DNA of 64,000 bases. Origin: an uncultured Thermoplasmata archaeon. GTDB lineage: Archaea > Thermoplasmatota > Thermoplasmata > Lutacidiplasmatales > UBA184. Below are positions 8,793 through 26,775 of this stretch, one piece after another; within the stretch, counting starts at the first letter, position 1, and every line of letters begins with the position of its first letter. Under the pieces are notes generated by a model. The model saw nothing but the letters and a program-made list of their open reading frames with translations. It did no database searches and was not told the DNA's origin. Both the position numbers and the translations under genes were made by a program. The stretch covers positions 633,064-697,063 of the forward strand of contig CAVYTM010000001.1 of assembly GCA_963771555.1 (NCBI GenBank), in the 5' to 3' direction.

Positions 8793-8800
8793 TATATACA
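8793..8800 (+). promoter_or_regulatory. TATA-like box (TATATACA) 26-33 nt upstream of the 8826 start codon; implies a leaderless transcript
   Basis: The only AT-rich octamer in a GC-rich intergenic stretch, at the canonical archaeal box-A distance from the ATG. Confidence 0.4.
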
Positions 8801-8825: not shown

Positions 8826-9539
8826 ATGTCCCTGGGACCCTCGGCGGCCCATGGCTTGATCCCCGAGCTGATTCAACGCCCCACGAGCGTTCTCCTCCAC
8901 GGCTCGAGCCGGCCGCTCCTGAACTGGGTGATGTACGCGCTGCTCGACCGATCGCAGCCGAACTTTTGGTGGACGGACGTACGATTGAAGGAGGAGCGTC
9001 TCGACCCCCTCGACCCGCTCGCGCGCCACGTGCTGCCCGAAGACCGGCTCAGCATCATCGAACCAGCAACGTTGCAGCGAAGTCCCGAGCCCGGTGACGC
9101 GTTCTCGACCATGATCCATTCGGACGAGCCCGCCGAGTCGCTGCAACGCGCGATGGAATTCCTTCAGCTCCCCGCCCACACCCAGGAACGGATCTCCCGG
9201 GCCCCGCTCGGGAAACGCCCCGCCCAGTTCGCCCTGTCGAACTGTCATCGACTGGCGGCCATTTTCCCGGCCAACTCCATTCAACCCACCCTCCGGGCCA
9301 TCCTGACCTCGGGAGTCACTCTCGTGATGACGTGGGCGGATGCGCTGCCGGCGGCCGCTCAATTGTTCGATTTGGTCGTCGGGGTCGAGGGCTCCAGCCC
9401 CGCGGTTTGGAAGGATGCCGTGCTGAAGTGCGAACTCGGAAGGTCGGAAGGGTTGGTCCGGGCGGGAAGTCGACTGCGCTTGGGCGACCTCCGCTCCGTC
9501 GCCGACGTCCTCGAACCGATGGGGTTGTCCCGTATCTAG
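8826..9539 (+). CDS. conserved hypothetical protein, paralog family member 1 (unknown function)
   Basis: 237 aa. Clear paralog of ORF 26041-26775 (SVLLHGSSRPLLNWVMYALLDRSQPNFWWTDVRLKEERLDPLDPL versus SVFISGSSRSLLKWFAFASLAPYTSRVYWTDVRLPGEILDPLDPM, with similarity continuing C-terminally). Upstream TATA-like box. Stop codon shares a CTAG tetramer with the convergent GT2 gene. Confidence 0.6.
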   Translation: MSLGPSAAHGLIPELIQRPTSVLLHGSSRPLLNWVMYALLDRSQPNFWWTDVRLKEERLDPLDPLARHVLPEDRLSIIEPATLQRSPEPGDAFSTMIHSDEPAESLQRAMEFLQLPAHTQERISRAPLGKRPAQFALSNCHRLAAIFPANSIQPTLRAILTSGVTLVMTWADALPAAAQLFDLVVGVEGSSPAVWKDAVLKCELGRSEGLVRAGSRLRLGDLRSVADVLEPMGLSRI

Positions 9540-10699
9540 GCTCGGCTCGCTCCCGGAGAGCTTCGGTCCGCGGGGAATTCGATTTCGGCCGGTCGGTCCT
9601 TCGGGATGAAGTCGCCGGAATTCGGGCGGGTGACGAGAGCGTACCACGGAGCGAGGACGTCGACGAGCGCGCCGACCAGACCGTTCGCAAGGAACCGGGG
9701 GATCGAGATGGCGCGCTCGAGGTAGTGAGCGTGGAGTCGATATCCTTCGACGTACGCGAGGATCATGGAGACCCAGATGAATCCCGTGAACACGCTCGTG
9801 ACGACCAAGAGAGGTCCGTAGCGGAGCTCAATGCTCGCGACGAGGATGGCGACCGAGGGGAGCGCGGAGAACCACGATAGCCCCGAGTACGCGACGGTGA
9901 GCCGTCGGCGCCGGGGCAGCTCGTGACAGTGAAGGACCGCGAACATCACCCCGTGCATCCAGCGACGCCGCTGACGAAGTTGGTCGCGCAGCGAGAACGC
10001 GCCCTTCTCGTAGGCGAAGCCCCTGAGGAGCCCGAACACCGAGCCGTAGCGCGCGCGAACGCGGATCTCGAACATGAGATCCTCGGAGGGAGCGTATCCT
10101 CGGGAGTCCCAGCCGACCGAATCCTCGATATCGGCGCGGACCAGGAAATGAGAGCCGTGGAACCCGGCGGTCGGGTTCCCGGGCATCGTCATCGAATCGA
10201 GCACCCTCAGGTCGTCGTACGACCGAGTGAGTTCCTGAACATGGCTCGGTGAGCCCCGCCAGTCGATCGGGTAGAGGATGATGCCGGCGCCGACCAGCGT
10301 CCGTCCGTCGAGCACGAAATCGGAGATCCCTCGGAGCGTGTCCTGGCCGACGCAGGTTTCCTCGTCTTGGTGATAAACCCAGACCTCCGGCACCGAGAGC
10401 CCAAGACAAGCGCGCTCGTCGCTGGCATACTGAAGTGCCCGCGCCTTGCCGGTCGTTCCGAGCGAGGTCCGATAGAGGGCCGGCACGATCAGGAGCCGGG
10501 CGCCGGCCCGTTCGAGACGATCGTAGACTTCGGGGGCACTCCAATATCCCTCCGGTTCCACGACCAACCACAGCAGGTACCGAAAGCCGAGCCTCGGCGT
10601 GTTCCGCATCCAGTACAGCACGGACCGGGCGGTCGCGTCCAGGGCACGGGCGTTCTTTCCGATCGCCGTCACCTGGAAGAGGACGGTGGGCTGCCTCAC
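9536..10699 (-). CDS. family 2 glycosyltransferase (GT2) with C-terminal transmembrane region
   Basis: GT-A-like core (VLFQVTAIGKNARALDATARSV ... WVYHQDEETCVGQD ... DLMFE ... QRRRW) followed by hydrophobic helices. Preferred start is a GTG at 10699 preceded by GGAGGAG. This start overlaps the TGA of the upstream gene (GTGA). Confidence 0.7.
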   Translation of the reverse strand: MRQPTVLFQVTAIGKNARALDATARSVLYWMRNTPRLGFRYLLWLVVEPEGYWSAPEVYDRLERAGARLLIVPALYRTSLGTTGKARALQYASDERACLGLSVPEVWVYHQDEETCVGQDTLRGISDFVLDGRTLVGAGIILYPIDWRGSPSHVQELTRSYDDLRVLDSMTMPGNPTAGFHGSHFLVRADIEDSVGWDSRGYAPSEDLMFEIRVRARYGSVFGLLRGFAYEKGAFSLRDQLRQRRRWMHGVMFAVLHCHELPRRRRLTVAYSGLSWFSALPSVAILVASIELRYGPLLVVTSVFTGFIWVSMILAYVEGYRLHAHYLERAISIPRFLANGLVGALVDVLAPWYALVTRPNSGDFIPKDRPAEIEFPADRSSPGASRA

Positions 10700-11664
10700 G
10701 TCTCCTCCGAGAGCTCGAGCCGGTTCTCTCGGAGAACCCGCTGCGTCCCGCGGAAGGCCGCAACGAAGAACGGAACCGGGACCATCCAGACGAGGGGCAA
10801 GGCGGCGAGCCAGATCGGGGGAACGGGCTCGTGGGCCTGGAGCGTGAGCCACAGGAGACTGGAACTGATGGCGACCGCGGCCGCGACCGTGCCCCAGCCT
10901 AGAGCGAGACGACGATCATGGAGCTTCGAAACCGTACGGTTGTATCGCTCCACGGTGAAGTCTTCGAACGAACCCGTGAGGGGAGGGATCGATGCGTCGG
11001 GCGGGATCACTGCTTTGGAAGCGAGGGGGGCGGGCGGAGGCACGACCGAATGTTCCCCCGACAACGGATGGGGTGTGGGGACCCGCCACGATACGCCTTC
11101 ACCCGCGCCTTCATCCCAAGGGTTCGACTGGATGAAGCCGAGCTCGGTCGAAGCCCGGTCGATCTCGCGGTCCACCAACGCGAGGGCGTGCCGAAGTCCC
11201 GCCAGCTCTTCCCCGACCCCTTGCGATTGGGCCACGAGTTCGCTCATGGCGGTCCGCGCTACGGTGATTCGTTCCTCGAGGTACGGGCTCGGCTCGCCCC
11301 ATTGTGCGGAATGGGTGCCTTCCGGGGCTTCGTTCGGAGCCTCGGGCGGCTCCTCCGTCCGGGGCAGAGGATTGGCCGCTCGGCGCGGTGCCAGTTCGTC
11401 GCGAAGTCGGTCGAGTTCCCGTAGTACATACTCGTCTTCACCGTCCGCGCGCGAGTAGCGCGATAGGGTCGGCGGGGTCGGAGACCCCGAGTCCTGTTCG
11501 TCTTCGGACCCGCCCGGATCTAGGGTGAAATCGGACGTCCGATGACGACCCTCTTCCTCCTCGCGAGTTTCCGGGGGACGACCGGTCTCGTCACCGGACG
11601 TAGCCTCGGCCCGGCGGGAACGATCGGGTCGATTGGGAGGCGACTCGCCGGGCTGTGACAACAT
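10696..11664 (-). CDS. hypothetical membrane protein: acidic disordered N-terminus, coiled-coil, two C-terminal TM helices; translationally coupled to GT2
   Basis: 322-aa ORF. N-terminal 110 aa is E/D/P-rich. Central helical region. C-terminal TMs LALGWGTVAAAVAISSSLLWLTL and IWLAALPLVWMVPVPFFVAAF. Stop overlaps the GT2 start. Confidence 0.55.
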   Translation of the reverse strand: MLSQPGESPPNRPDRSRRAEATSGDETGRPPETREEEEGRHRTSDFTLDPGGSEDEQDSGSPTPPTLSRYSRADGEDEYVLRELDRLRDELAPRRAANPLPRTEEPPEAPNEAPEGTHSAQWGEPSPYLEERITVARTAMSELVAQSQGVGEELAGLRHALALVDREIDRASTELGFIQSNPWDEGAGEGVSWRVPTPHPLSGEHSVVPPPAPLASKAVIPPDASIPPLTGSFEDFTVERYNRTVSKLHDRRLALGWGTVAAAVAISSSLLWLTLQAHEPVPPIWLAALPLVWMVPVPFFVAAFRGTQRVLRENRLELSEET

Positions 11665-11769
11665 GAATCGCTCGCAGTTTTCCCTTTAATGCTATTCCTT
11701 GGACGGGCAAGCCTCGTCACACCCTCCGGAGTTGGGCAGCCGACTCTCCCACCGACCGCCGCGGAGGTA

Positions 11770-13802
11770 ATGAATCCGGCCCGTTTCGAGGGCGCGTTGC
11801 CCGACGCCGAAAGCCCCCCTCCGCGAGTCGCGTCGCTCGGACGGCTCCCGTTTTCTCTATCGGCGGACGAACTGCGCCAGCGCGGCGCCGAGATCCTAGT
11901 GGAGGAGCGCCGTCAACTCGCGGACCTCGCGTCGCGGTCCGGCAGCGCCAGCATCGCGAGCTTCCTCGAGCCTCTCAACCGGATCCTCGTGGCCGCAGCG
12001 GACGTAGGAGCCCACGGGGGTCTCCTCTTCCAAGCCCATCCGAGCCCCGAGATACGGGAGGCCGGGCGGGAGCTCTCCGAGGATTCGGACCGTTTCTTCA
12101 ACGAGTTTCGGCTGAACGAGGCGGTCTATCGCCACCTACGTTCGATCGACCTCTCGGACCAGGACCCAACGACCCGCTGGGGGCTCGAGAGGTTGCTGAA
12201 GGAGATGCGACGTGCGGGCGTGGAGCAACCCGTCCCCCGGCGGAAGGAGATCGTCGGCCTCGCGAACGAACTCGACCAGGTCGAGAACGAGTTCAGCGCG
12301 AACATCTCCTCGGCCGTGCGATCGGTGGTGACAGAAGGCACGGAGCCACTCCGTGGTCTTCCCGTGGATTTCATCGCGGCGCACGCGCCGAGCGCGGACG
12401 GGAAGATACGGATCACGACGAAGTACCCCGACGTCTTCCCGGTCCTGAGCTACGCCGACGACTCCGACCTGCGTCGCCGCCTCTACTACGAATTCATGAA
12501 CGTCGCGGCGCCCGAGAATCTCCGTGTGCTCCACGACCTGCTCGTAGGGCGCCGGAAGTTCGTCCGCCTGCTCGGATACTCCGACTTCGCCCAGTATGCC
12601 GTCGAGAACAAGATGAGCGAGCGCCCCGAGGTCGTCGAGACCTTCCTCGACCGGGTAAGAAACCTTGTCCGGGAGCCCTCCCGCCAAGAGATGGCACGAT
12701 TACTCGCGAGGAAGCGGAAGGACCATCCGGAGGCGACGCGGCTCGAGGATTGGGACGGCCCGCTCGTAGCCGCCGGCTACTATGGCACCAAGATCCGCGA
12801 GGAGGAGTACGGGTCGACGCGCGACGGCTTCGAGCGTACCTGCCGTACACCGCGGTGCGCGACGGGCTCTTCGACCTGTGCCGAGAGCTGTTCGGTCTCG
12901 AGTTTCGGCGTGACCGCACTCCCGAGCTATGGCACCCGACCGTCGAAGCGTACGATGTTGGGCGGAAGGGCGACCCCATGGGCCGGTCCTACTTCGACTT
13001 CGTGCCCCGACCCGGAAAATTCGCTCACGCGGCCCACTTCACCGTGCGCACCGGCGTGATGGGGGGTGGCCTCCCCCAGGGGGCGCTGATCTGCAACTTC
13101 CTCGACGATAAGACCCCCGTCGAGGAAGCGCGCATGGAGTACCGGGACGTCGTGACCTTCTTCCACGAGTTCGGCCACCTGCTCCACCACCTCCTCTCCG
13201 GCCACGGTCGTTGGATCTACAGCGGAATGGGGTCCGTGGAGCGCGATTTCATCGAAGCGCCGTCCCAGCTGTTCGAGGAGTGGGCGCGGGACCCGACGAC
13301 CCTCGAGCGGTTCGCAAGGAATCCCGACACCGGCGAGTCCATCCCGACGGCCCTGGTGGCCCGCTTGAAGGAATCGGAAGCCATGGGACGCGCGTCGTTT
13401 GTCCTCCGTCAATCCGGGCTCGCGAGCGTTTCGTTGGAAGCCCACCTTCGCGACCCGAACGAATTCGTTGCCTCCGAGCTCTACCGAGAGATCTTCTCGA
13501 AGCAGGTGGGCGTTCCGGTCGATCCGGAGTATCACCCCATGGCGAGCTTCGGCCACCTGACCGGCTACTCCGCGTTCTACTACACGTACCTCTGGTCGGC
13601 CGTGATCGCACGGGATCTCCTGACCCCGTTCGAGGCGAAGGGGTCGCTCACCGACCGGGCCCTCGCCGAGCGTTATGCCAACGAGGTGCTCGCGCCGGGC
13701 GGGAGCCGGCCGGCGGCCGAGCTCGTGAGTAACTTCTTGGGCCGGGAATACAACTTCGACGCTTTCAGCCGTTGGGCCCTCGCGGGCACGAAGCCCGCCT
13801 GA
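11770..13802 (+). CDS. M3-family metallopeptidase (thimet oligopeptidase / oligopeptidase A-like); reading frame interrupted at ~12811-12813
   Basis: HEXXH zinc motif FFHEFGHLLHHLLSG and a conserved M3 C-terminal region lie in ORF 12750-13802. The N-terminal two thirds lie in ORF 11689-13059 in another frame. Adding one G after GAG-TAC-GGG (12811-13) yields the M3-typical ...IREEEYGVDARRLRAYLPYTAVRDGLF.... Start proposed at ATG 11770, preceded by GGAGG. Joined length is ~678 aa. Confidence 0.75.
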
Positions 13803-13847
13803 GCTCGGCCCGAGGAGATTCGGAGCCGCGACCCCCGAGGCTCGGGG

Positions 13848-14075
13848 TTACTTCGAGGAAGTCGCCTGCTTGAGCTCGTGGCGCGCGAGATAGCTGCGGC
13901 CCAGGACGAATCCGATCCCGGCACCGATCACGCCGCCGACGATGATCCCGATGATGAGGTACTCGAGCGCCGGCAGCAGGTCGCTCATGTCGAGGTAGGC
14001 GATCTGCTGAAGGAAGATCACGATGACGATACCGAGCACGACCCCGCAGGAGGCGCCGTGGGACGTGGCGCTCAC
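13848..14075 (-). CDS. small two-TM membrane protein
   Basis: 75 aa with two hydrophobic helices (GVVLGIVIVIFL and LIIGIIVGGVIGAGIGFVLG). GTG start overlaps the TGA of the upstream gene (GTGA at 14072-14075). Confidence 0.45.
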   Translation of the reverse strand: MSATSHGASCGVVLGIVIVIFLQQIAYLDMSDLLPALEYLIIGIIVGGVIGAGIGFVLGRSYLARHELKQATSSK

Positions 14076-14809
14076 GAGCTGCCTCCTGGCGGCGGGGTCT
14101 CCGCCGCAGCCGGCTCGGCCGTGGGTGGAGACTCGGTCGGCGGGGTCGATGGCGGTGAAGTCGACGGCGGCGGGGTCGAAGGTGGCGAGCCCGCGAGCTT
14201 GCGGCCCAGCGCGGCGTAGCGACCGGACCGGACGAGCGCGTAGATCTCGTAGATCGCGATGATCAGGAGCACGATCGGAATGGCCGCCACGAAGCCGAAC
14301 AGCGCGTTCGCTCGAACGTAGAAGTTCTCGCTGAACAGCGTCGTTTGGTTCGGGGAGAGGAAGCTCGCGGTGATCTTGTACACGCCTTCGAGGACGTACG
14401 CGATCGAGAGAGGAGTCCAGGTCAGCGGAATGCTCCCGTTCGCGCTCGCGATGGGGTTGTTGACGGTCTGGGTCCGGGTCGTGACGGCGAAGCCGAAATA
14501 GAACATCTGCAGCTGGGCGCTACCCACGGTGACTTTGGCCGAGGAACCCGTGGCCCAGTTGAACAAGACGCTGGCCGAGGTCGTGAAATCGATGCCCAAC
14601 GCGGAGGACGAGGTCGAAGCGGTCTGGACGTCGACGTTGTTCCAGGTTACGGACCATGCGGCCGCGGCAAAGGGTTCGGCCCCGGAGGGCTGGGAGGCGG
14701 GGCTCGCCCTCGCCGGAACCGGCACGCTCACGAGGAGGGCAACGACCGCCATCGCGAGGAACGCGCCCACGAGCCCCGCACGCCCGGCCGCCCGGCGAAG
14801 GAAACGCAT
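14072..14809 (-). CDS. secreted/membrane protein with signal peptide, one TM helix and Pro/Ser/Thr-rich tail
   Basis: Signal peptide GLVGAFLAMAVVALLVSVPVPARA. Beta-rich extracellular region with NxS/T sequons. TM helix FGFVAAIPIVLLIIAIYEIYALV. C-terminal repeats PPSTPPPSTSPPSTPPTESPPT. TATA-like box at the expected upstream distance. Confidence 0.55.
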   Translation of the reverse strand: MRFLRRAAGRAGLVGAFLAMAVVALLVSVPVPARASPASQPSGAEPFAAAAWSVTWNNVDVQTASTSSSALGIDFTTSASVLFNWATGSSAKVTVGSAQLQMFYFGFAVTTRTQTVNNPIASANGSIPLTWTPLSIAYVLEGVYKITASFLSPNQTTLFSENFYVRANALFGFVAAIPIVLLIIAIYEIYALVRSGRYAALGRKLAGSPPSTPPPSTSPPSTPPTESPPTAEPAAAETPPPGGSS

Positions 14810-14830
14810 GTCCTCCGCACGGAGCTCGGG

Positions 14831-14838
14831 TTTATCAA
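14831..14838 (-). promoter_or_regulatory. TATA-like box (TTGATAAA on the minus strand) 22-29 nt upstream of the 14809 start codon
   Basis: AT-rich octamer in a GC-rich intergenic region. GGAGG lies just before the ATG. Confidence 0.3.
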
Positions 14839-14884
14839 CCCATGCTTACGAGGTGTCCGAAGTCCGCTGAACTTCCGCTGGGTC

Positions 14885-17800
14885 CTAGGTCGGGGCAGGC
14901 GCGCCCCCGAAGGTGGCCCGGAATCGTTCGAGGTCCTCGGTCTTCATCAACGACGGGGCGAGGTAGACCCAGATCCGAGCGTCGTTCTCGCGCGCCAATC
15001 GGTCGAATTGCACGAGGCCGTTGAGGACGACATCGGCACCGTGGAGGCGGACCAGATACTCCACCCCTTCGAGGAAGAACGCCGTCACCTGTTCCTCGAG
15101 CAACTTCTTAGTGAGGAAGCTCCACGCACCCTCGAGATCCGAGGGACGAAGTGCCGGCCCCCGTCCGATGTTCGTCAACCAGAACACCTCGACCGGCCGC
15201 GACCCGACCCGGGCCCGGATCCGCTCAGGAGACTCGCGAACGACGCACACGCCGTGGTGGCCCGCGGACGCCGCTTCGAGAAATCCGCTGAGCGACGAGA
15301 CGAGCGAATCGCCGACCATGAGTTCGATCCCCGAGGGGGGAGCCGCGGGTTCCGGTTCGATCGGTTCGGAAAGAATGGTCGGAGGGACGGTGGTCCCCGC
15401 GTCGGTCGACGGCGTCGCGGCTTCCAAGGGCGCCGCCGGAGCGACTTCGCTCGCACCAAGTTCGGTTTCAAGGGGCGGCAACGGTCGGACCATCTCCGGC
15501 GGAGGAACCACCGGGGGACTAACTTCGGATTCCGGAGGGACCGGTGGGGCCGCCTCGATCGGCGAGAGGACCGAGGGAGAATCTCCTTCGAGGGGTTTGT
15601 CGGTCGAGGATTCTTCGGGCGATGGCAGCTCCTCGGGGATAGGCGGGATGGTTTCTCGGACCGGCTCGGGAGGTTCCTCCGGGGGTGGCGTCTCGCCGGG
15701 CGTCGACGGAGTCTCCAGGACGTTCGGAACCGAGGGTGTTTCAGGCGGGCTGAGGTCAGGGGGCGAGTCCCTCTCGGTCGGCTCGTTCATGACCGGTTCC
15801 GGAGAAGCCAGTTCGGGCGGGGGAGTCTCCAGTGTCGCGCGCACGGAGTCGACCGACTCGGGGGGAACCGGCTCGGGGACGACCAGCTCAGTCGGTAACG
15901 GTCCGGGCACAGCCGACTCCACCGGAGCCCGTTCGGGGGTCGCGGGTTCCGGGACGAGGGGTTCGGAATCGGCAGCGACCTGGTCCGAAGGAATGCTAGG
16001 TCCCTCCGTCCCCTCAACCTCCTGAGTGCCTTCGGGGGGCAGTGGGGGGATGGGAGCGGTCTCCTCCTCCGAGGGAGTCTCGAGTTCGGGCATCGGATTC
16101 TCGGGAGGTTCGGCCGGCTCGCTGGCCGGCGAGAGTTCCATTTCTGCGATCGAAGACGCCGGTGGGATGATGTCCGTTGGTCCCGGAGTTTCTTCCATCA
16201 ACGGAGCGGGGGCCGTCGATTCGGCCACCTCGGTCGGGGCCATTGGAACGGGAGCCTCGAGGTCCACCTCCGGGGATGGCATGACCGGTTCTGGAGGTGC
16301 ACTCGCGTCGGGGATCTCCCCCTCCGGAGCTGCGGCAAGGTCAGCTTCCTCGTGGACCTCCGGGCCCGCCACATCCACTGCCGGGGGGGCTGTCTCGATC
16401 GCGAGGTCATCTGCCTTCGGCGATGGGAGAGCGGTGGCACCGATCGGTTGCGCAATCTCGTTTCGAACGGGGGGAGGGACCGGTTCCGAGGAAGGGGGCG
16501 TTTCGGCCATCGCGGGAACGGGACTCTCGATTCGGAGGCCTTCTAGCGCCCCGAAGTCTCGACTCGCTTCCGTCGCGGGCTCGGCCACAGGGCGAGCCCG
16601 GAACTCCGGGGCGGCGGCCCGGATCGCCCTGACCGGCGGTGGGCGGGTCCGTCGGGTCGAAGCCGGCGGGATGATCCCGCCGAGCTTCGAGAACACGGCC
16701 TCGGCGACCGGCCCGCCGAAGCCCGGGAGTTCGGACACCGTCTCGAACGATGCATGGCGCAGGTCGTCGACGCTGTGGATGCCCTGCTCCCACGCACCCG
16801 CGACCTTCGACGGGCCGAGGAGGGGAACGCCGAGAATGTCATCCAGCTCCTGGCCCAGGGCTCGAACCGCCTCCTCGTGGGCCACGAATTTCTCGTCCGA
16901 GTAGTCGAATTCCTCGGGAATCGCTGCGGTCGACGTCGAGACCCGCTCCATCCGGACGCGCGCCCGTGGCCGCTTCTCGTGTCGGGGCGGGAGCGGAAGG
17001 TCGGGAATATGGATCCACCATCGGTCCCCCGTTCGTGTGCGTCCGGTCATCGAGTCCGGTGGGATCGCTCCCTCCGATTTCTCGACGACCCGGAGCTCCC
17101 GAAGTCCCAGGTAGCGGGCGATCGGCTCCGCGGCGGCCCGAAGCTCCGGAGCGAGGGGGTCGTGGGCGGTGACGAGAGCGACGCGCGTCGGCGTACCCGA
17201 AGTCGCGCCCGCCGAGCGGAGCCTCCGCTCGATGCGACGCACGAGCCAGAACGCGTCCCCGGAGAGCGGTGGAGCTCGCGCCCGTGCGAAATCCGCGCCG
17301 GCCGGAAGTTCGAGGTACAGCTCCCCGAGTGAGCACGGCACGGGAACGACCCGATCGGGCAGCGTGTCGGAGAGAGCCACCATGTTCGGGAAGATCCGAC
17401 GCGGCAGCCCATTGATCACGACCGTGAGCTCCTCGTGCCCCGCCGCCGTCTCCCACCGGCGCGGCGCCATCCGCGACAGCAGGTGGACGATCTGCGAAGC
17501 CTGGGAAGGGTAGGCCTTCTGGATCTCCGCCTCGATCGGGCGGATCGTGCGCTGGCGGCCGGTCCAAGGCTCGCGCGGCGACGCGACCTCGAATCGTTGG
17601 ACCCCGGCGAGGCGGGCGAGGGTCTCTTTCTCCGCCCGGAGCTTGTCGCCCACGTCGTCGGCCGAAACGACCAGAACGAGCGACGGTAGGACGGTTGTCC
17701 GAGGCACCGCGAGCGACCGCCGGAATCGATCGACACTGTGCAGCACCTTCCACCAACGGTCCCAGGCGGCGACCAATTCGTCGTTGAGCAGGGCCCGATC

Positions 17801-19930
17801 GAGACCGGCCATCGGTTGCTCGAAGACGCTGGTCCTTTCGGCAGCGAGGGCACGGTGCATCGCTTCCGAAGTGAACGGGAGGATGGGTGCGAGGACCTCC
17901 GAGAGGCCCCGTAGGAGATGGGCGAGCGTCCGGAGGGCCGCCCGCTTGGTGGTCGGGGTCCCCGCCAACGCGAGACGCGGGGCGACGAGCGCCCGGTACT
18001 CCACGAGGTCGTTATCGAGGAATCGGAACGCACGGCGGTGCACGAGCGCCGGCGCCCAGTGGTCGTAGTGAGCGAGCGCGAGGGTCCGGGTGCGTTCCCA
18101 TCGCGCGAGGATCGCGCGATCCTCTACCTCGAGGTCCCCGAGGAACCCTCCGATCGGCCGCGCGAACGCCGCCAGTATCGAGGGGTCGCACATCCCGAGC
18201 ACCTCCTGGGAGAGCACCCACCAGCGCCGGATCCGGTCGGATTCCTGACGACACCGCTCCGCGAAACTTCCCCGAGGGCAATCCGAGAGTCCGGTGCGGA
18301 TGAACGCCGCGCGAACGGCATCCGCGCCGAAGCTGACCACGAGCTCGGGAGCGTCGTTCGCCGCGACCGTCGGGATGACGGTCAGGTTCACCTCGCCGAC
18401 GAAGCCCTGCACTCCCGAGAGTGCGGCCAGGTGATTGACGAGCGAGGGGACGCGTCGGCGTTGCCCTACGTACAGATGGACCGAGTCCCCGTCGGGAAAG
18501 GGGTCAAAACGGGCCCAAGCCGAGAAGGCTCCGCCGCTCGAGGGAAGGAGTCGCCGCTGGATGATCGTCCGTTGACCGCCGCACGGGCAGGCCACGGGGC
18601 CGTCCGGCGCTGCGAGTCGATCGCATCGTGCGCATTCGAGCAGAGCCACTGCGGTGGGGTCCTCGCTGGTGAGCGCTTCGCTGACGGGCCACGGAGCGAC
18701 CTCCGCGAGGTCCGGGAGCGTCTCCTCGGGCAGAAGGCGAGAGAAGAGTTCTCGACGTTCGGGAGGAAGATGGGAAGGTTCGAGGCACCAGGCGCGACCG
18801 GGGGCCCACAGGAGCGACGTACCGCATATCGCGCACCGGGGAACTCCCCGCTTCACGCGCAATCGCGCGAGCAAGGCACCCGCTTCCGAAAGGTCGCGCA
18901 GGACGAATTCGTTGGCGCTCTCGAGGTCGAGGCCCGCGTACTTGTGGAGGAGCGTGAAGTCGAGCGTTCCCTTCGGGGTGACGAGGGGCCAACCGGTGAC
19001 ACCGGTCCGGGCCGCGATCCGGCCATCGGTAGGCCCGTGGCCGGGCACGAGGGGAACGATGCCGGTGCCGGTGTCGGTCACATCGGACGCCCCGAGGATG
19101 GTGCCGCCCGGGGCGGCCAGGTCTCCGCCGATCGGAAACTCATGGCGTAGGGGATAGGAATAGGCCGTTCCCTGGAACGCGCGCCCGGGATGCTCCTCGA
19201 CGATCTCGAGCGAAGCTTCCGGGATCCAGGTACGGAGACGGTCCAGGGACGATTTCGAGGTGAGGACCAACTCTCGGTCGTCCCGCCGTCGATAGCCCGC
19301 GATCACGTACGTGAGGTCCGGGTTCACGAGGAGCGCGCTCGTGCCGAGGAGCTTCCACGGGACATCGACCCAAACGAGGACGTTGACGGTCAGGTCCTTG
19401 AGCCGCACCGGAAAGCGTACGAGGAACGTGTCGCCCTCTCGTTCCTCGTAGATGATGCGTTCGGGACTTCGCGGCGACCCGCACGAGGGGCACATGCGGA
19501 AAGCACCGTCGCGGGTGACCAGAATCCCCTTCGCCGCGAGTCGGCCGACGATCGCCTGGACACCGGCGTGTCGGTCCTCCGAATCCCACGGAGTTGCGCC
19601 GTCTCCTCCGGTCCAGACGCCCAGCGCGGTCAGAAGCGCGGGTACGGCCGAGGTCGCCGTCGGTCCCGCTCCCGTGCCCTGGCGCAGGGTCGCCACCGCG
19701 CGCCGGCCGACGAGCTCGAGGTATCGGGCGTCGACGTCGGCGACCACCGCTCGGTGAGCTACCAGGGAAGGGAAGTCGCCCTGGGTCCACGCTCCGACAT
19801 ACTGCCGGACCGCGGGTCCGCTCGGGGGGCCGAGCACCCCACCCGCCGGGGGCAGCCGCCGTCCCCTCCAGAGGGTGAGGACGTCCCCTTCGACCGAATG
19901 TGCGTTGTAATCGGGAGGGACCGTGTCCAT
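14885..19930 (-). CDS. giant 1681-aa protein: degenerate isoleucyl-tRNA-synthetase-like core (~aa 1-960), HhH motif, ~430-aa Pro/Glu-rich acidic linker, C-terminal ~150-aa domain of unknown function
   Basis: Class-Ia aaRS-like segments: an N-terminal region aligning to the HIGH region but reading GDFPSLVAHRAVVADVDARY (HIGH lost); editing-domain-like LVPGHGPTDGRIAARTG; Zn-knuckle-like RCAICGTSLLWAPGRAWC and CARCD...CPCGG; a KMSKS-equivalent position reading LTVIPTVAANDAPELVVSFGADAVRAAF (KMSKS lost, the FGADAxR motif retained); anticodon-binding-like LDNDLVEYRALVAPRL...LSEVLAPILPFTSEAMHRAL. Then HhH (LLGPSKVAGAWEQGIHSVDDLRHASFETVSELPGFGGPVAEAV). PE-rich low-complexity region over nt ~16510-15220. 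C-terminal globular region FFLEGVEYLVRLHGADVVLNGLVQFDRLARENDARIWVYLAPSL. Confidence 0.7.
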   Translation of the reverse strand: MDTVPPDYNAHSVEGDVLTLWRGRRLPPAGGVLGPPSGPAVRQYVGAWTQGDFPSLVAHRAVVADVDARYLELVGRRAVATLRQGTGAGPTATSAVPALLTALGVWTGGDGATPWDSEDRHAGVQAIVGRLAAKGILVTRDGAFRMCPSCGSPRSPERIIYEEREGDTFLVRFPVRLKDLTVNVLVWVDVPWKLLGTSALLVNPDLTYVIAGYRRRDDRELVLTSKSSLDRLRTWIPEASLEIVEEHPGRAFQGTAYSYPLRHEFPIGGDLAAPGGTILGASDVTDTGTGIVPLVPGHGPTDGRIAARTGVTGWPLVTPKGTLDFTLLHKYAGLDLESANEFVLRDLSEAGALLARLRVKRGVPRCAICGTSLLWAPGRAWCLEPSHLPPERRELFSRLLPEETLPDLAEVAPWPVSEALTSEDPTAVALLECARCDRLAAPDGPVACPCGGQRTIIQRRLLPSSGGAFSAWARFDPFPDGDSVHLYVGQRRRVPSLVNHLAALSGVQGFVGEVNLTVIPTVAANDAPELVVSFGADAVRAAFIRTGLSDCPRGSFAERCRQESDRIRRWWVLSQEVLGMCDPSILAAFARPIGGFLGDLEVEDRAILARWERTRTLALAHYDHWAPALVHRRAFRFLDNDLVEYRALVAPRLALAGTPTTKRAALRTLAHLLRGLSEVLAPILPFTSEAMHRALAAERTSVFEQPMAGLDRALLNDELVAAWDRWWKVLHSVDRFRRSLAVPRTTVLPSLVLVVSADDVGDKLRAEKETLARLAGVQRFEVASPREPWTGRQRTIRPIEAEIQKAYPSQASQIVHLLSRMAPRRWETAAGHEELTVVINGLPRRIFPNMVALSDTLPDRVVPVPCSLGELYLELPAGADFARARAPPLSGDAFWLVRRIERRLRSAGATSGTPTRVALVTAHDPLAPELRAAAEPIARYLGLRELRVVEKSEGAIPPDSMTGRTRTGDRWWIHIPDLPLPPRHEKRPRARVRMERVSTSTAAIPEEFDYSDEKFVAHEEAVRALGQELDDILGVPLLGPSKVAGAWEQGIHSVDDLRHASFETVSELPGFGGPVAEAVFSKLGGIIPPASTRRTRPPPVRAIRAAAPEFRARPVAEPATEASRDFGALEGLRIESPVPAMAETPPSSEPVPPPVRNEIAQPIGATALPSPKADDLAIETAPPAVDVAGPEVHEEADLAAAPEGEIPDASAPPEPVMPSPEVDLEAPVPMAPTEVAESTAPAPLMEETPGPTDIIPPASSIAEMELSPASEPAEPPENPMPELETPSEEETAPIPPLPPEGTQEVEGTEGPSIPSDQVAADSEPLVPEPATPERAPVESAVPGPLPTELVVPEPVPPESVDSVRATLETPPPELASPEPVMNEPTERDSPPDLSPPETPSVPNVLETPSTPGETPPPEEPPEPVRETIPPIPEELPSPEESSTDKPLEGDSPSVLSPIEAAPPVPPESEVSPPVVPPPEMVRPLPPLETELGASEVAPAAPLEAATPSTDAGTTVPPTILSEPIEPEPAAPPSGIELMVGDSLVSSLSGFLEAASAGHHGVCVVRESPERIRARVGSRPVEVFWLTNIGRGPALRPSDLEGAWSFLTKKLLEEQVTAFFLEGVEYLVRLHGADVVLNGLVQFDRLARENDARIWVYLAPSLMKTEDLERFRATFGGAPAPT

Positions 19931-19956: not shown

Positions 19957-20070
19957 GATACCGGTTCGCGGGATTAAACCCTCGTCGGGGAAACCGGTGG
20001 CCGAGAAGCCCCCCGACCGGGGGAACTCTTATCCTCCCGCAAATCTGCCCGCCACCCGAGGAACGACCCG

Positions 20071-20457: not shown

Positions 20458-20504
20458 ACCCATCCTCCGGGAGTCGCCGAGGAGAACGGCGCCCACCTCG
20501 CTTC

Positions 20505-20512
20505 ATTAATAA
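20505..20512 (+). promoter_or_regulatory. AT-rich box (ATTAATAA) followed by AGGAGG, between aIF-5A and the downstream giant helical-repeat gene
   Basis: The only AT-rich element in the 150-nt intergenic region. Could be box A for the downstream gene (TTG start at 20609). Confidence 0.3.
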
Positions 20513-20608
20513 GGAGGACCGGGCATGAAACCGGTGTCCGAAGCGTGCGAAAGCCGCGGTCGGGTCGGCTCAGTTTAGGGGGGTGGTCGCACGACAGGTC
20601 CGGGCGGA

Positions 20609-23600
20609 TTGGGGTCCGTATCGTCGTCCCGCCTCACCCGCATCCTCCAAGAAAAGGCCGAAGCGCTGAAGAAACAGCGGCAAACGGCCGAAGCGACGCT
20701 GAAGGATATCGACGATCAGATCGCGATGCTGGACCAGCTCGGCATCGCTCCGCCGGAAGCGCACGAACGCCAAGTGGCCCTGCGCGAGCTCGCCCGCCGC
20801 GCCGACTGGAACGGCGTGGAGAGTCAGTCCAAGGCCATGACCGATTACCTCTCGAAGACCGTTCCCACGACCATCCAGGAACGTCGAACCCGGACGGCCG
20901 AATCGGTGCGCCGGTTCTCCGGCCTCGGGCTCGTGGTCCCGGCGGAGGTCAACACGGAGCTCGCCGCGCTCGCCCATCCTCCTGAGGGCGAAGCGTGGTC
21001 GGCGACCGTGGCGCGGCTCGCTCACGTGGAAGAGGCGCTCCACACGTCGGAGATGGCCCACGTCAATGAGGTCCGGGAGCGAGCCCTCGCGGTCGCCACC
21101 TGGGCGGGCCTGACCGGGGCCCGTCGGAGCGAGTTCGAAAAGCGTCTCGACGACGCGCTGCTCCCCGTCAAGGAGGACCGTCTCGCCGAAGCGTTCGAGG
21201 GGGTGGACCGACTGCTCCGGACCGGCCTCCCCGAATCCGCCGGCCGCCGCCAGAAGGTCCAGGACGAGGGCACGCGGCTCGTCGCGGCGGCCAAGGAGTT
21301 CGGCGCCCCGACCTCGCATCTGGAAGCGGCGCTCACGGCGGGGGCCGACGCGGCTCCGGACCGGTGGCCCGACGTCGTCCCCACGGCCGAAGTCGCGATC
21401 CGGGAGGTGGGCGAAGCGCTCCGCGAGCGCTGCGTCCAGATCCTCGAGGCGCTGCGCACCTCCCTCGATTCGACCCGGGAGTACGGGTGGACCCCTCCTC
21501 CGCTCGCCTCGCCGTCGACGACGCCTTGTCCCGCATTCGAACTTCACCCGCACTCGAGATCGGTCCGATCTTCCTCGAGGCCCGTCGGGCCGCCGAGGAG
21601 CCGATCGTCACCGTCGTCGCCGGACTTCTCGACGAGGCCCGGCCCCGGATCGCGGACGCCCGTCGATTGGGCCGCGACCCCAGCGAAGTGTTCGCCGCGA
21701 TGAACCGGGCGCGCGAGGCGCTTCGCCTCAAGATCTACTCGGAGGCCTTCGCCGCGAGCCAAGAGGCCCTCGACAAGGTCAGCCGGCTCACGGACGAGCT
21801 CGACACCGCGCGCGACGAGCTCCAATCGCTCGAGGAGATGGCCGCTCGATTCCGAAAGACCGGCTTCTCGGTCGAACCGTTCGACCCCTCGCTCATCCGC
21901 ATCCGAGCTTCGCTCGACCGGGCCGAAGTGACGCAGGCCCGAGAACTGCTGAAGGACACGGTCGTCCACCTCGGGCGCGAAGCCCTCCAGTTCTTCGCCC
22001 AGCGCTGGGCGGGCCTCGACAAGGCCCGAGATTACGCGAGGGAACGCCAATTCCTCTCCCCCGACGCCGACCGGGACATGAACGAAGCACGCGAGCTTCT
22101 CGACAAGGGCGAGCTCGCGGAGAGCGCCGAGCGGATCTCCCGCGCCGAGACGGAGCTCCGCCGGGCGGCGACACCGTATGTGGCGCGCCGCGTGGAAGAG
22201 ATGGAGCAGGGACTTTCCGATATTCCGGACGAGGCGTTGGTCGCCCCGGTCCGCCGACTCCTCGCGGACGCGGACGTGACCCTACGGGTCAAGCAGGACC
22301 TGATGGGCTCGATCGAAAGCCTGCGCCGGGCCGAACGTGAGTTCGGCGCAGTCGTCGCGGCGCACGCCTCCGCGCTGGTCGAGATCCTCGAGGCCGAGCG
22401 CGAGGTGCTCGAGACGATGGGCGGGCCGAGCGACGAGATCCAGCGGCAGATCGACGAGGTCCAGCAGATCTTCAACATGGGGGACTTCGTCAAGGCGTCG
22501 CGGGCCTCGCAGGAGATCCGCACCCGCGCCCAGCAGCAGCAGCTCCTGAGGAGCGAGGAGTCGGTCTCGCACGCCAAGCTCTCGCTCGTCGAGCTCGAGA
22601 CGATGGGGTTCGACCTCACGAAGTTCCGTGGGCAGCTCGACGAAGCGCAGAGCGCGGCACGCGCGGCCCGATTCGCGGACGCCTACCGACTCGCGACGCG
22701 ACTCGAAGAGTCCGCGCTGCGGGCCCGAGCCGCCGGACAAGCGATCCTCGAGGGGATCGCGCGCACGCAGGAAACCCTTGGACGCCTTCGCGAAGGCGGG
22801 GTCGACCCGAATCCGTTCTACGAGCCCCTGCGCAACGTTCGCCTCGCGTTCCAGAGCCTGGACTTCGACCGGGCCCACGCGACGCTCGAAGAGGTCGAGC
22901 ACAAGCTCGGGGACGAGGCCGCGCGAGGCGAAACGACCCGGCTCCTCGGGGACGTGGAACACCTGATCGAGGACGGCCGCCGGCTCTCCTCCCCGATGGA
23001 ACCGTTCCAGGCCCGCCTGGAGCAGCTTCGCACCGAAGCCGCGACCGCTCCTCCCGAGGCGACCCGGACCGGCGCCCGGCTCCTCCACGAGGAGCTCAAC
23101 GCGATCATCCGGCCGATCCTGGACGAGAACCTTCGGGCCCTCGAACGCGACTTGGACATTGCGCGCTCCGCCGGGGTCGACCTCGACAAGATCCTCTTAC
23201 CGCTCGGTGAAGCGCGCCGAAGGATCGCCCTTCCGGTGCCGATCGGCGCGGCGGCGCTGCTCGATGCTGCGCGCGCGGAATTCGTGTCGACGAGGGGCTT
23301 CGTCGAACACGCCGAACGGGTGGCCAAGCGGGCCCGCGAAGCCCTGGCCGAAGCGGACCTTCTCCACGTCCACACTCCCTCGCTGCGAGAACAGATGGAA
23401 CGGATCGACAAGCTGCTCGCGGAGCGCCAGTACGCCCGCGTGGTCGAGCTCGGTGGTCCCCTCGAGCGGGAGCTGATCCAAGCGACCTACCAACACGTAT
23501 CGAAGACCTTGGCGGGGTTCCAGGCGACCGTGACCCGGCTGCGCAAGGAAGGCATCGACACTTCGCTCGCCGAGAATCTCCTCCATCGGGCCCGCATGGC

Positions 23601-25086
23601 GCTCGACGAAGGACGCCCCGTCGAGGCCCTTCAGCTCGCGGGACAGAGCGAAGGCGAGCTCGAACGAGCGGACCTCCAGCGGCGCATCGCGGAAGGCTCG
23701 CTCGCGGCCGCCGAGGCATCCATCGGACGGGCCACCGTGGACGGCATATTGTCTCCCGTCGCCACCGAAGAGCTCGCCGCTGCGAAGCTGGCGTTCCAGG
23801 GCCACGAGTACCCCCCGGTCCTCGAGCACTCCCTCCTCGCCTCCGACGCGCTTGGTATCGCGCGCGAGGGTCACCGCCGAGCTCGGGACGCCCTTGCGGC
23901 GGCGGAACGACAGATTCGCGAGGCGTCCGACGTGGGCGCCGACACCGAGCCCGCGAGCCTGCGAGCCGGCGAAGCTCGCCAGCAGATCGACGCAGGGCTC
24001 TATCCCGACGCGACCCGAGTTGCTCGGGAAGCCACCGAGGAGGCTCGCTGGGCGATCGAGAGGCTCTTCGCGGGCCCGATCGGTGAGCTGCGCCGGAAAC
24101 TCGATTCGGCCCGGCACGAGGGTCTCGGTGCCGAGGTCGACCCGATCGAGGCGATCCTCGGTGAGGCCGAGACCGCCCTCCGCGCCCGGGATTGGGGCCG
24201 CGTCAAGGAGGCCATCGCTCGGGGCGAGGCCGCTTGTGTCCGGATCATCGACGAGATCGTCGACGGCCGGTGGCGCGAAGTCGAGGCGGAGTATGTGCGC
24301 ACTTCCGACGGCCCGCCGGCCGAGGTCGACCGGAGGTCGGAGGTCCGAGTCCAGCTGACGGCGCTCCGCGACCACCACGACTACGGTGCCGCGCTCGTCC
24401 TCGTACGCTCCGAACTCGAGCTCGCCCGCCAACGCCGCCGCGAGGACATCGAGCGACAGATGGCCGAGTTCAAAGATCGCCTCTGGGTCGGTGAGCGACT
24501 CGCCCTCGACACGACCCCGGTCATGCAAACCTTCAGCGAAGCCCGGGTGGCCCTCGATGCCGGCCGTCCGGACGAGGCCGAGGCACTACTGGCCCGGGCG
24601 ACGAGCGCCCTCGAGCCGACGGTCCGCGAGCCGTACACCCGTCGGTGGCGCGAGCTTCAGACGGAGATCAATTTTGCCCAGGAGGGCCTGCACGTCAAGG
24701 TCGGGCCGATCCGGGAACGACTGCAGCAGGTCGAGGAGCTCGACCGTTCGGGCCAACTGCTCGACGCGGCCCGCCTCTTGCTCAAGACCGAGGAGGAGCT
24801 CAACCTGCGAAAGTCGCTCCATCGGGAGCTGATGAATCTCCACTACCTCATCGACGCCGCGCTCACGAAGGCCCACGAACTTCGGGTCGATACGTCCGAG
24901 GCACGGGCGCTGCTCGCGGAGTCCCTGAGGCTGCGAGAGACCGACTATTCCGCCGCGCTCGAGAAGGCGCGCGAGGCCCTACGCAAGTTGCAGAGCGCGG
25001 GTGTCGGAATGGTCGAGGGTGTCGTACCGCCGTCGCCGGCGGCGAACCCGTTCTGGCCTTTCCGACGGCCTCCGTCCGAGCCGTAA
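20609..25086 (+). CDS. very large (~1490 aa if joined) alpha-helical repeat protein of unknown function; frame interrupted at ~21485-21487
   Basis: ORFs 20609-21703 and 21364-25086 overlap by 340 nt in different frames. Adding one G after GAG-TAC-GGG (21485-87) gives the continuous ...LDSTREYGVDPSSARLAVDDALSRI.... The body has at least 13 ~80-aa helical modules anchored by A-L-x-x-G-[DR]-[YFW]-x-x-A (e.g. LRARDWGRVKEAIARGEAA, LDAGRPDEAEALLARATSA, LRETDYSAALEKAREAL). TTG start. Confidence 0.6.
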
Positions 25087-25090
25087 TCGC

Positions 25091-25549
25091 CTACGCGGAC
25101 GACAAGTAGCTGGTGCCGACGGGCGTCGGCGGAAGCCCCGCCGGCCCCCGCGGGGGTCCGAGAGGAAGGCGGTCGTACTCCACCGTGTGCTTGATACCTC
25201 TCCGACGGAGAAGGGTCGATACCTGCTCCGTGATCTGCACGACCTCCTGGCATCGGGCGGGCTTCGCAAAGTAGAACTCGGCGCGTCGTTCGTCCGCGAT
25301 CGGGAAGATGAGGCGAAGGCCAAACGCATCCTGGCGGTTGTATCCCACCGGCTTTCGGTTGCCCTTGAGGTCCCTCAGGTTCTCGTCGAGGAGAACCTCC
25401 GGGAGGAGAGGGTCCGACTCCTTGACGAACGGACGGTTCATTTCGACGACCCGTTTGTGGATCTCGGGGTAGACGCGGACGAGGTCGCGGTACGACCGTT
25501 TCGGGTCCAAGAGGATGTGCCCGCTGCGCGCCTTGACCGGGGGAGTCAC
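25091..25549 (-). CDS. hypothetical protein (152 aa)
   Basis: Protein-like composition (DLVRVYPEIHKRVVEMNRPFVKESDPLLPEVLLDENLRDLKGNRKPVGYNRQDAFGLRLIFPIADERRAEFYFAKPARCQEVVQITEQ). The antisense ORF 25001-25576 and the overlapping Arg-rich ORF 24945-25679 were judged less likely. Function not recognised. Confidence 0.35.
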   Translation of the reverse strand: MTPPVKARSGHILLDPKRSYRDLVRVYPEIHKRVVEMNRPFVKESDPLLPEVLLDENLRDLKGNRKPVGYNRQDAFGLRLIFPIADERRAEFYFAKPARCQEVVQITEQVSTLLRRRGIKHTVEYDRLPLGPPRGPAGLPPTPVGTSYLSSA

Positions 25550-25790
25550 GACCAGGAATCGAACCCGGGGTCTTAGGGGCTTCGGGGTCCTCCCGCGACG
25601 CCCCGAACCACGGAAGTGGGGTCGATTTGGCGGTCCCCCTTCGGTACGTGACGTTCTCGGACCTGCGGATGAAATCCACCGCTCGGATGGCGTTTGGTCA
25701 CTACTTTGGGGATGGGAGAGACGTGGGATCGCTAGTGGTTGGTCCCGGCGTCGAAAGGCTCAAAGAGGCTGCCCGCTACCGACTCCGGGC

Positions 25791-25892
25791 GCTCCCGTAG
25801 TCTAGTGGTCAAGGATAGAGGCCTCTCGAGCCTCTGACGCGGGTTCAAAACCGGCCGGCAACGACCGGCTGGGGAAACTCCCGCCGGGAGCA
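25791..25892 (+). tRNA. tRNA-Glu (anticodon CUC) with a ~29-nt non-canonical intron in the T-loop/T-stem junction
   Basis: Acceptor GCTCCCG/CGGGAGC plus discriminator A (archaeal tRNA-Glu-like GCTCC...GGAGCA). D-arm GTCT-AGTGGTCAA-GGAT. Anticodon arm GAGGC-CTCTCGA-GCCTC (U33, CUC, R37). T-stem GCGGG, loop TTCAAAA. The 3' T-stem CCCGC is contiguous with the 3' acceptor only after skipping ~25851-25879 (intron contains the hairpin GCCGG-CAACGA-CCGGC). No intron-less fold satisfies the acceptor pairing. Confidence 0.65.
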
Positions 25893-26040
25893 CCTCGCCC
25901 GCCCTTCCGCGCTGACCGAGAACCCGCCCGAGGGCGGTCACTCTCGAAGACACGGGGTTCCCGGCGCCCCAATCCGTGCAATCGCCCCGACCTTCCCCAA
26001 GGGTGAGGTCCTTATCTGTGGGTCGCCGTTCGAACTATCC

Positions 26041-26775
26041 GTGGTAAACGATCCTCCCGCCGAGGAGCTCTTTCCGGGAGGCTTCGGCAAACCCTCCTCG
26101 GTCTTCATCTCGGGGAGCAGCCGCTCGTTGCTGAAGTGGTTCGCGTTCGCCTCGCTCGCACCGTACACCTCTCGGGTCTACTGGACCGACGTTCGCCTGC
26201 CGGGAGAGATTCTCGACCCTCTCGACCCGATGTCCATCCATGCCATTCCGGAAGAATCGGTGTACGTTCTCCTGCCCCGGGACCTTTCGCCGGACGACCA
26301 AGGAGCCCATCAGGCCGAAGTGGCCGCGGCCACCATGCTCCGGTCCGATGCCAGCGCGAACTCGATTGAGGGTCTCGTGGAGTTCCTCCGCATGCCGAGC
26401 CACGCCCAGAAGCTGATCTCGGCCACGGGCCGTCCGGGCGCACCCTCGATTCTTGTTACGGCCAATGCCCAGCGCCTCGCCTCGGCGTATCCGCAAGATC
26501 GCATTGCTCCGCTGATGCGCACTATGTTAGAATCCGGAACTTGCCAGGTCGCCCTTTGGGCCGAAGCCCCCACGACATTCACATCGATCTTCGATATCAT
26601 TCTCCACGTGGAAGGAAACGGTTCGGCGGACTGGCGCAACGCGACCGTGCGATGCGAGAAGGGAATCTCCGCCGGACCGCTCGCGTCCGGACGGACCACC
26701 CGCCTCTCCGAGATAGGGTCGATCTCCGCGATACTCGAGAAGTCGGTCCCGACCCCCCCGAGGGGCCCGGGGTAA
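26041..26775 (+). CDS. conserved hypothetical protein, paralog family member 2 (unknown function)
   Basis: 244 aa; paralog of 8826-9539 (shared motifs GSSRxLLxW, YWTDVRLxxExLDPLDP, and EFLxxPxHxQ further along). GTG start. Confidence 0.6.
   Translation: MVNDPPAEELFPGGFGKPSSVFISGSSRSLLKWFAFASLAPYTSRVYWTDVRLPGEILDPLDPMSIHAIPEESVYVLLPRDLSPDDQGAHQAEVAAATMLRSDASANSIEGLVEFLRMPSHAQKLISATGRPGAPSILVTANAQRLASAYPQDRIAPLMRTMLESGTCQVALWAEAPTTFTSIFDIILHVEGNGSADWRNATVRCEKGISAGPLASGRTTRLSEIGSISAILEKSVPTPPRGPG

Follow-up and report, generated by a model that had tools for sequence, protein, structure and literature searches.

A Family of Inactivated KaiC/GvpD-Like Proteins Represented by Two Paralogs in a Thermoplasmata Archaeon

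Introduction

It has been proposed that KaiC-like ATPases, together with their inactivated derivatives, are major signaling hubs of archaea, and few of either have, to our knowledge, been studied. The primary description of the inactivated derivatives, the iKaiC domains, is said to be that of Makarova and colleagues (mBio, 2017). Such domains, e.g. DUF835 and MEDS, form a recognized class of archaeal signaling modules (PMC5847659). Another described relative is haloarchaeal GvpD, a regulatory protein of gas-vesicle formation. It acts via protein-protein contact with the activator GvpE, and both its Walker motifs and its arginine-rich regions are needed for the breakdown of GvpE (PMC4390858). 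Here, we describe two paralogous genes, A and B, found in a DNA stretch of 64,000 nucleotides (hereafter, the window) from an uncultured Thermoplasmata archaeon (assembly GCA_963771555.1, contig CAVYTM010000001.1, positions 633,064 to 697,063 of the forward strand). An initial annotation, made from the letters of the window and with no database searches, had presented them as a two-member family of unknown function. We find that A and B belong to a family of iKaiC pseudo-ATPases separate from both DUF835 and MEDS.

Results

Gene A (8826..9539, plus strand) starts with ATG and encodes 237 amino acids (aa), while gene B (26041..26775, plus strand) starts with GTG and encodes 244 aa; the two open reading frames (ORFs) are those that the initial annotation had listed as proteins of ~240 aa. 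Each product is a stand-alone inactivated KaiC/GvpD-like domain, belonging to the A-type and the B-type orthologous group, respectively. Their proposed paralogy is well founded, as BLASTP aligns 227 residues with 37% identity, 58% positives, and 4 gaps (E = 6e-52). All three motifs that had been quoted as shared (GSSRxLLxW, YWTDVRLxxExLDPLDP, and EFLxLPxHxQ) lie inside this alignment. The similarity spans the full length of the proteins and is not a low-complexity patch.

Both proteins yielded confident AlphaFold2 models. The predicted local distance difference test score (pLDDT) and the predicted TM-score (pTM) were 87.5 and 0.85 for B, and 94.4 and 0.91 for A, for which a deeper alignment was used. 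The models were compared with the PDB using Foldseek. The top match of A was the KaiC CI domain (E = 2e-7, probability 1.0), and the top matches of B were KaiC and RecA (E = 2e-6, probability 1.0). For both models, the KaiC domains, CI and CII, came first and were followed by RecA, the alignments covering 216–244 columns. The models show A and B to have a predicted alpha/beta fold of the RecA/KaiC type.

A search with a profile of 126 family sequences over 2778 ORFs of the fetched loci produced one match outside the family. This protein, P0288 (512 aa, locus L016; E = 2.5e-5), carries the Pfam domains GvpD_P-loop (E = 2.8e-11, above threshold) and KaiC, and belongs to a large Thermoplasmata family of ~505-aa "KaiC/GvpD/RAD55 family RecA-like ATPases". 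The latter, hereafter GvpD-like ATPases, consist of an N-terminal P-loop domain and a degenerate C-terminal domain. The same profile also matched two more GvpD-like proteins, with scores of 31 and 19 bits. When the family was aligned by hhalign with a profile of 111 GvpD-like N-terminal domains, the probability was 94.4% (E = 8.4e-8, 169 columns), as compared to 0.2% for the GvpD-like C-terminal domains, which served as the control. From the P-loop strand to strand 5, the two profiles stay in register, with strand 2, the FL[RW]LPxxxQ helix, and the Walker B strand lying in between. In particular, the helix preceding the Walker B strand, with the motif [DE]FL[RW]LPxxxQ, is common to the family and the GvpD-like ATPases. 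In the reciprocal search, a hidden Markov model (HMM) of the GvpD-like proteins weakly matched a family member (E = 0.0015). Together, these comparisons show that the family is homologous to one part of the two-domain GvpD-like ATPases of Thermoplasmata, namely their N-terminal P-loop domain.

Both motifs required for nucleotide hydrolysis are replaced. The Walker A motif of the ATPases, GPPGSGKT, aligns with the family motif G-x-x-R-x-L-L-[NK]. Here, the position of the Walker Lys is taken by a nearly invariant Leu, and that of the Thr, by Asn or Lys. The Walker B motif, VVIDSWD, aligns with v-l-v-v-[S/A]-N-x-x-R, in which Ser (A) or Ala (B) occupies the Asp position and the N-x-x-R part is family-specific. 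The pattern GxxxxGK[ST] was found at the P-loop position in none of the 146 representatives and in none of the 137 closer homologs; the only three matches to it lie near residue 210, away from the P-loop site. In the AlphaFold2 model, helix 1 (H28-38 in B) begins with the former P-loop segment. The alignments thus show that the predicted nucleotide-hydrolysis machinery of A and B has been lost. Walker A and Walker B are replaced in essentially all members, and the family is therefore a single-domain derivative of a KaiC/GvpD-type ATPase domain that has been uniformly inactivated.

Other residues are highly conserved. Among the 146 representatives, G24 (98%), R27 (85%), N138 (90%), and R141 (84%) take the place of the lost motifs, and W47 (98%), P115 (97%), W194 (89%), and E202 (90%) are conserved as well. 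The most conserved polar residues follow strands 1, 2, and 3, where RecA-like proteins bind the nucleotide. In comparisons with non-saturated synonymous divergence, the ratio of nonsynonymous to synonymous substitution rates (dN/dS) was 0.19–0.24 for A and its orthologs, and 0.14–0.22 for B and its orthologs. Therefore, both genes are under purifying selection. The family hence belongs to the iKaiC class: it is a KaiC-superfamily domain with degenerate motifs, kept under selection.

To our initial pair, an exhaustive HMM search with a 36-sequence profile against 1.84 billion cluster representatives added a sizable family: 265 representatives of 50% identity clusters at E<=1e-3, 188 of them at E<=1e-10. 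Hence, the description of A and B as a two-member family holds within the window, where phmmer run on all six-frame ORFs found these two as the sole copies and no third paralog, and fails for the family at large, whose 265 representatives are spread across Thermoplasmata. Three neighboring proteins of 245, 238, and 244 aa, all lacking Pfam domains, were considered as additional members and rejected, both by phmmer of the window ORFs and by the family-profile scan of the locus ORFs. The members are stand-alone single domains, nearly all of them of 220–300 aa. The longer ones, up to 368 aa, have N-terminal low-complexity extensions rich in Pro, Arg, and Gly, which are probably mis-called (over-extended) starts and not domains.

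We collected 39 homologs of A, with 40–92% identity, and 98 homologs of B, with 47–100% identity. Every source entry that gives an organism reads "Thermoplasmata archaeon", and the products are annotated as "hypothetical protein" throughout. P0228, a distant member with an organism name, also comes from Thermoplasmata. In addition, we scanned one genome per GTDB species with a pattern derived from a 14-sequence alignment, which reaches only members with the ExLDPLDP motif. This yielded 22 loci, every one in metagenome-assembled genomes (MAGs) of Thermoplasmata; the restriction of the family to this class is based on the named hits and on this motif-limited scan. Six species genomes contain both an A-type and a B-type gene. 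Therefore, the duplication is older than those species, and both copies have been retained in them; A and B are two old, anciently duplicated orthologous groups.

Neither A nor B matches anything in Pfam, even at E<=10, in NCBIfam at permissive thresholds, or in the PADLOC (anti-phage defense) and PHROGs (viral) models at E<=1, and the surroundings of both genes in the window are chromosomal housekeeping genes. The 126 diverse members have no convincing match to any Pfam model; in particular, none of them matches GvpD_P-loop (PF07088), KaiC (PF06745), DUF835 (PF05763), or MEDS (PF14417) at E<=1. Searches of PDB sequences, with the single proteins as well as with the profiles of 36 and 126 sequences, returned only noise: the weak matches to FtsH, DhaR, alkaline phosphatase, and an IS200 transposase covered short stretches with E of at least 0.03 and were dismissed. 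Thus, A and B are orphans with respect to curated families, as initially annotated, and no database search assigns them directly to a well-known one. They are not orphans in the wider sense, since the predicted structures and the profile-profile alignment assign both to the KaiC/RecA superfamily. The family has no Pfam or NCBIfam entry, and we found no description of it; the class of inactivated KaiC-like domains is already known.

The window is GC-rich and has many spurious long ORFs, and we compared it with contig JBAVAD010000049.1 of the Thermoplasmata MAG GCA_049585555.1, which encodes proteins exactly matching A and B. Relative to this contig, the window has one-base-pair indels at 8141, 12814, 21488, 27323, 28916, and 30496 (four of them within G or C runs, the other two being insertions of a single T) and substitutions at 9407, 10439, 27222, and 28249. 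The indels split five window genes, encoding the 373-aa membrane protein, an M3 peptidase, a 1492-aa helical protein, a Zn-ribbon protein, and an ABC permease, all of which are intact in the contig. These indels probably stem from assembly errors or from differences between strains. Neither A nor B contains an indel; the lone substitution within A falls on a third codon position, and A of the window still translates exactly to the protein of the NCBI contig.

Both genes are preceded by candidate promoter elements. A TATATA box (8793..8798, plus strand) is centered 30.5 nt 5' of the ATG of A, as the initial annotation, which proposed a TATA box at -30 and a leaderless layout, had noticed. Nine A-type loci have this hexamer without any change, and the surrounding GC-rich upstream region is otherwise poorly conserved. 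Upstream of B, a BRE/TATA-like element, GGTCCTTATC (26007..26016, plus strand), is found ~28 nt 5' of the GTG start. In 12 B-type loci, an element of the GGTTCTTATC / GGTTTAT type occupies this position, so that both its sequence and its conservation point to a putative promoter. In archaea, the spacing between the TATA box and the transcription start is characteristic. As the elements of A and B sit at the usual archaeal distance, the start sites estimated from this spacing suggest leaderless, or nearly leaderless, mRNAs for both genes.

The neighborhood of A is conserved among its close orthologs. A GT2 glycosyltransferase gene (9536..10699, minus strand; Pfam Glyco_trans_2_3, E = 5e-21) is convergent with A and overlaps its 3' end by 4 nt; the same overlap is seen in six of the nine A-type loci (here and below, this number includes the window itself), among them L009 and L010. 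A divergent gene of a membrane protein of ~373 aa is located upstream of A in eight loci. Downstream, all nine loci have a gene of a 245-aa membrane-anchored protein (14072..14809, minus strand), 1–5 kb from A, and an ORF of ~75 aa (about 13849-14076, minus strand). The 245-aa protein has an N-terminal signal or transmembrane segment, a C-terminal transmembrane segment, and a tail rich in Pro, Thr, and Ser; neither it nor the ~75-aa ORF has a family match.

Eight of the nine loci also contain, convergent with A and 1–5 kb downstream of it, a giant gene encoding 1600–1700 aa. In the window, its product is 1681 aa long (14885..19930, minus strand), and the gene forms an operon with the 245-aa gene (14072..19930, minus strand). 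The giant protein has Pfam and NCBIfam matches. Its N-terminal half is degenerate and similar to class-Ia aminoacyl-tRNA synthetases (aaRS); this half is followed by an HhH motif and a long linker rich in Pro, and a DUF835 domain forms the C-terminus. Pfam Anticodon_1 is found in the aaRS-like half, and the scores of its IleRS/ValRS editing and anticodon-binding regions are far under the NCBIfam cut-offs. The DUF835 part is nearly invariant across orthologs. The proteins of this operon have no sequence relation to A or B: the family profile does not match the giant protein in hmmsearch, and its DUF835 domain aligns with the family with a probability of 2.8% in hhalign. All of these neighbors of A are on the opposite strand, either convergent or divergent, and the linkage may reflect shared ancestry rather than function.

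Gene B, as originally noted, lies next to a tRNA gene and a Zn-ribbon protein gene. The former is tRNA-Glu(CTC) (25790..25866, plus strand; ARAGORN), 175 nt upstream of B, and the latter is immediately 3' of B. Farther upstream, between the aIF5A gene and B, the region 20609-25086 (plus strand) encodes an all-helical, repetitive protein of ~1492 aa rich in Glu, Arg, Ala, and Leu. This is one of the genes split by a frameshift in the window, and it has no family match, only sub-threshold ones to YfdX and DUF724. Between it and tRNA-Glu lies an ORF of 152 aa (25091-25549, minus strand), also without a family match, for which the NCBI contig has a gene call. We have seen no gvp genes near A, B, or their orthologs.

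The GvpD-like ATPase genes identified in other loci are located at 7494-9029 of L016 (minus strand), ~800 bp from a B ortholog, at 6001-7518 of L036, and at 6001-7527 of L037. The last of these is found beside a two-component cluster of REC, REC-Hpt, REC, and PAS-HisKA-HATPase proteins. P0333, an active GvpD-like relative, adjoins a two-component-system cluster, and this location fits a signaling role for the active GvpD-like branch. Two GvpD-like proteins that were traced in order to learn whether the genome of the window encodes such an ATPase turned out to belong to other assemblies.

Elsewhere in the window, the minus-strand regions 42488-56406 and 60300-63358 form a housekeeping block with genes of aromatic amino acid and tryptophan biosynthesis. 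These encode archaeal dehydroquinate (DHQ) synthase II, DHQase-shikimate dehydrogenase, 5-enolpyruvylshikimate-3-phosphate (EPSP) synthase, chorismate synthase, an anthranilate synthase-like enzyme, anthranilate phosphoribosyltransferase, and a PALP enzyme. The block also includes aspartate kinase, aspartate-semialdehyde dehydrogenase, and the isocitrate lyase and malate synthase pair of the glyoxylate shunt. At the other end, the region 750-3830 (plus strand) encodes a protease of the thermopsin family, 1026 aa long and equipped with PKD and Ig-like domains; thermopsin genes of a similar kind are found near family members in L003 and L008.

Discussion

On balance, we lean slightly toward the view that A and B are inactivated KaiC/GvpD-like pseudo-ATPases acting as non-catalytic binding or regulatory proteins. 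Its two parts differ in strength: we consider the fold and the descent from KaiC/GvpD-type ATPases very probable, while the role of an adaptor is a tentative proposal to which we give somewhat less than an even chance. Under this proposal, A and B would, judging by their residues, neither bind nor hydrolyze ATP. Instead, they would bind partner proteins via the conserved scaffold and a remodeled surface at the former nucleotide site, formed by G25, R28, W48-T49-D50, N142, and R145 (B numbering); the FLRLPxxxQ helix, common to GvpD-like ATPases, might contact partners as well. The two proteins could then be nucleotide-independent adaptors or regulatory subunits of a KaiC/GvpD-type signaling network, co-assembling with active GvpD-like ATPases, capping them, or competing with them for targets as decoys. 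The paralogs would serve different partners, with the A type tied to the cluster of the aaRS-like/DUF835 giant, the membrane proteins, and GT2, and the B type having no fixed neighbors. Since haloarchaeal GvpD needs its Walker motifs for the breakdown of GvpE, a relative devoid of these motifs cannot act in the same way.

Several observations weigh against this view. The TM-scores to KaiC are moderate, 0.40–0.47 with a root-mean-square deviation of 7–10 Å (for the KaiC and RecA structures taken together, the ranges are 0.35–0.47 and 6–10 Å), and the fold of A and B is therefore a diverged RecA-like core. The C-terminal third of the family lies outside the hhalign alignment with the GvpD-like N-terminal domains. 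That the conserved residues cluster at the old nucleotide site is deduced from their positions at strand ends, and A and B may bind a nucleotide in a non-canonical way, or some small ligand. Domain fusions that could guide functional assignment are absent among the family members. The genomic context does not point to a partner either: the synteny of the A type is convergent, not operonic, and is gone in more distant A-like members (L011), while B-type genes and distant members have no conserved neighbors. Finally, a GvpD-like gene is adjacent in just one of ~30 loci, L016. We treat this adjacency as a coincidence and not as a functional link, although the same locus supplied the homology lead.

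The alternative that we rank highest is that the remodeled nucleotide pocket, lined by G25-x-x-R28, W48-T49-D50, N142-x-x-R145, and W173, binds a metabolite or a phosphate-bearing compound, making A and B one-domain sensors similar to MEDS. The placement of the top conserved polar residues right after strands 1, 2, and 3, the nucleotide-binding position of RecA-like proteins, agrees with such a pocket, and MEDS and DUF835 provide precedents of iKaiC domains serving as sensory or input modules (PMC5847659). Still, we regard a ligand sensor as unlikely, as none of the 126 members matches MEDS or DUF835 at permissive thresholds, hhalign detects no relation to the neighboring DUF835 domain, and the family has no output domain, fusion, or conserved signaling neighbor.

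A broader variant is that the invariant G-x-x-R, W-T-D, and N-x-x-R motifs constitute a new site, either ligand-binding or catalytic, that was built on the old nucleotide pocket and belongs to a lineage-specific sensor or enzyme, with A possibly working together with its neighboring cluster. We find this rather doubtful. If true, A could be active, along with the membrane/GT2 cluster and the aaRS-like/DUF835 giant, in a signaling pathway that has not been described so far and is related to the envelope or to tRNA.

The context of A lends itself to yet another explanation, in which A is a cytoplasmic envelope or glycosylation accessory, i.e. a subunit of the cluster comprised of the 373-aa membrane protein, GT2, the 245-aa membrane-anchored protein, and the giant aaRS-like/DUF835 protein, and B has been recruited elsewhere. 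It would account for the persistence of the 245-aa gene in all nine loci, of the giant gene and the divergent membrane-protein gene in eight, and of the 4-nt GT2 overlap in six. However, co-transcription of A with these neighbors is excluded because all of them are on the opposite strand. Moreover, the synteny is confined to one clade, the A orthologs with at least 55% identity, and shared ancestry may explain it; it is absent in L011, and neither B nor the distant members show this context. An accessory role is therefore improbable.

A non-canonical enzyme, in which R28, D50, N142, and R145 would stand in for the Walker motifs in nucleotide hydrolysis or other catalysis, could explain the strong purifying selection and the high conservation that charged and polar residues show at the old active site. 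We think it very improbable: Lys and Thr of Walker A have become Leu and Asn or Lys, Asp of Walker B has become Ser or Ala, the P-loop segment is, in the AlphaFold2 model, folded into the start of helix 1, and GvpD with a mutated Walker motif loses its function (PMC4390858). Lastly, the possibility that the similarity is due to chance or low complexity, or that the ORFs are non-coding or decaying pseudogenes, which the GC-richness of the window with its abundant spurious ORFs and its several frameshifting indels might suggest, is refuted by the full-length pairwise alignment, the 265 homologous clusters, the dN/dS of 0.14–0.24, the confident models of both proteins, and the absence of indels in either gene, with the single substitution in A at a third codon position.

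Set beside the known systems, the inactivated KaiC/GvpD-like family of A and B is closest to the two-domain GvpD-like ATPases (PF07088 and PF06745; P0288, P0318, and P0333), which are its nearest relatives detectable by sequence. The two groups have in common the order of the core strands, the [DE]FL[RW]LPxxxQ helix, and their taxon, Thermoplasmata. By contrast, the GvpD-like ATPases are ~505 aa long and have two domains, an intact GPPGxGKT, and a Walker B motif of the form hhhhDSWD, whereas A and B are single domains of ~240 aa with both motifs replaced. Haloarchaeal GvpD is the founding member of the Pfam family matched by these nearest active relatives; unlike A and B, which do without the Walker motifs, it requires them. 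Structurally, the best matches to A and B are KaiC CI and RecA (4TLC, 4TL8, 2GBL, 7S66, and 1MO3), although the identity is just 9–16%, and A and B have no P-loop, catalytic glutamates, or second domain.

The family alters no established view, and its importance is modest. Still, it escapes Pfam and NCBIfam while being conserved, with two paralogs per genome, and its named members all come from soil and peat Thermoplasmata. Placing it as an offshoot of GvpD-like ATPases that has no P-loop provides annotators with a name for these proteins, and experimentalists with a concrete hypothesis, that of a pseudo-ATPase adaptor of KaiC/GvpD-type regulators. Similar to A and B, DUF835 (PF05763) and MEDS (PF14417) are KaiC-superfamily domains that lack the ATPase motifs; they are often fused to REC or PAS, whereas members of the A/B family always stand alone. 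The A/B family is thus a third iKaiC lineage, alongside DUF835 and MEDS.

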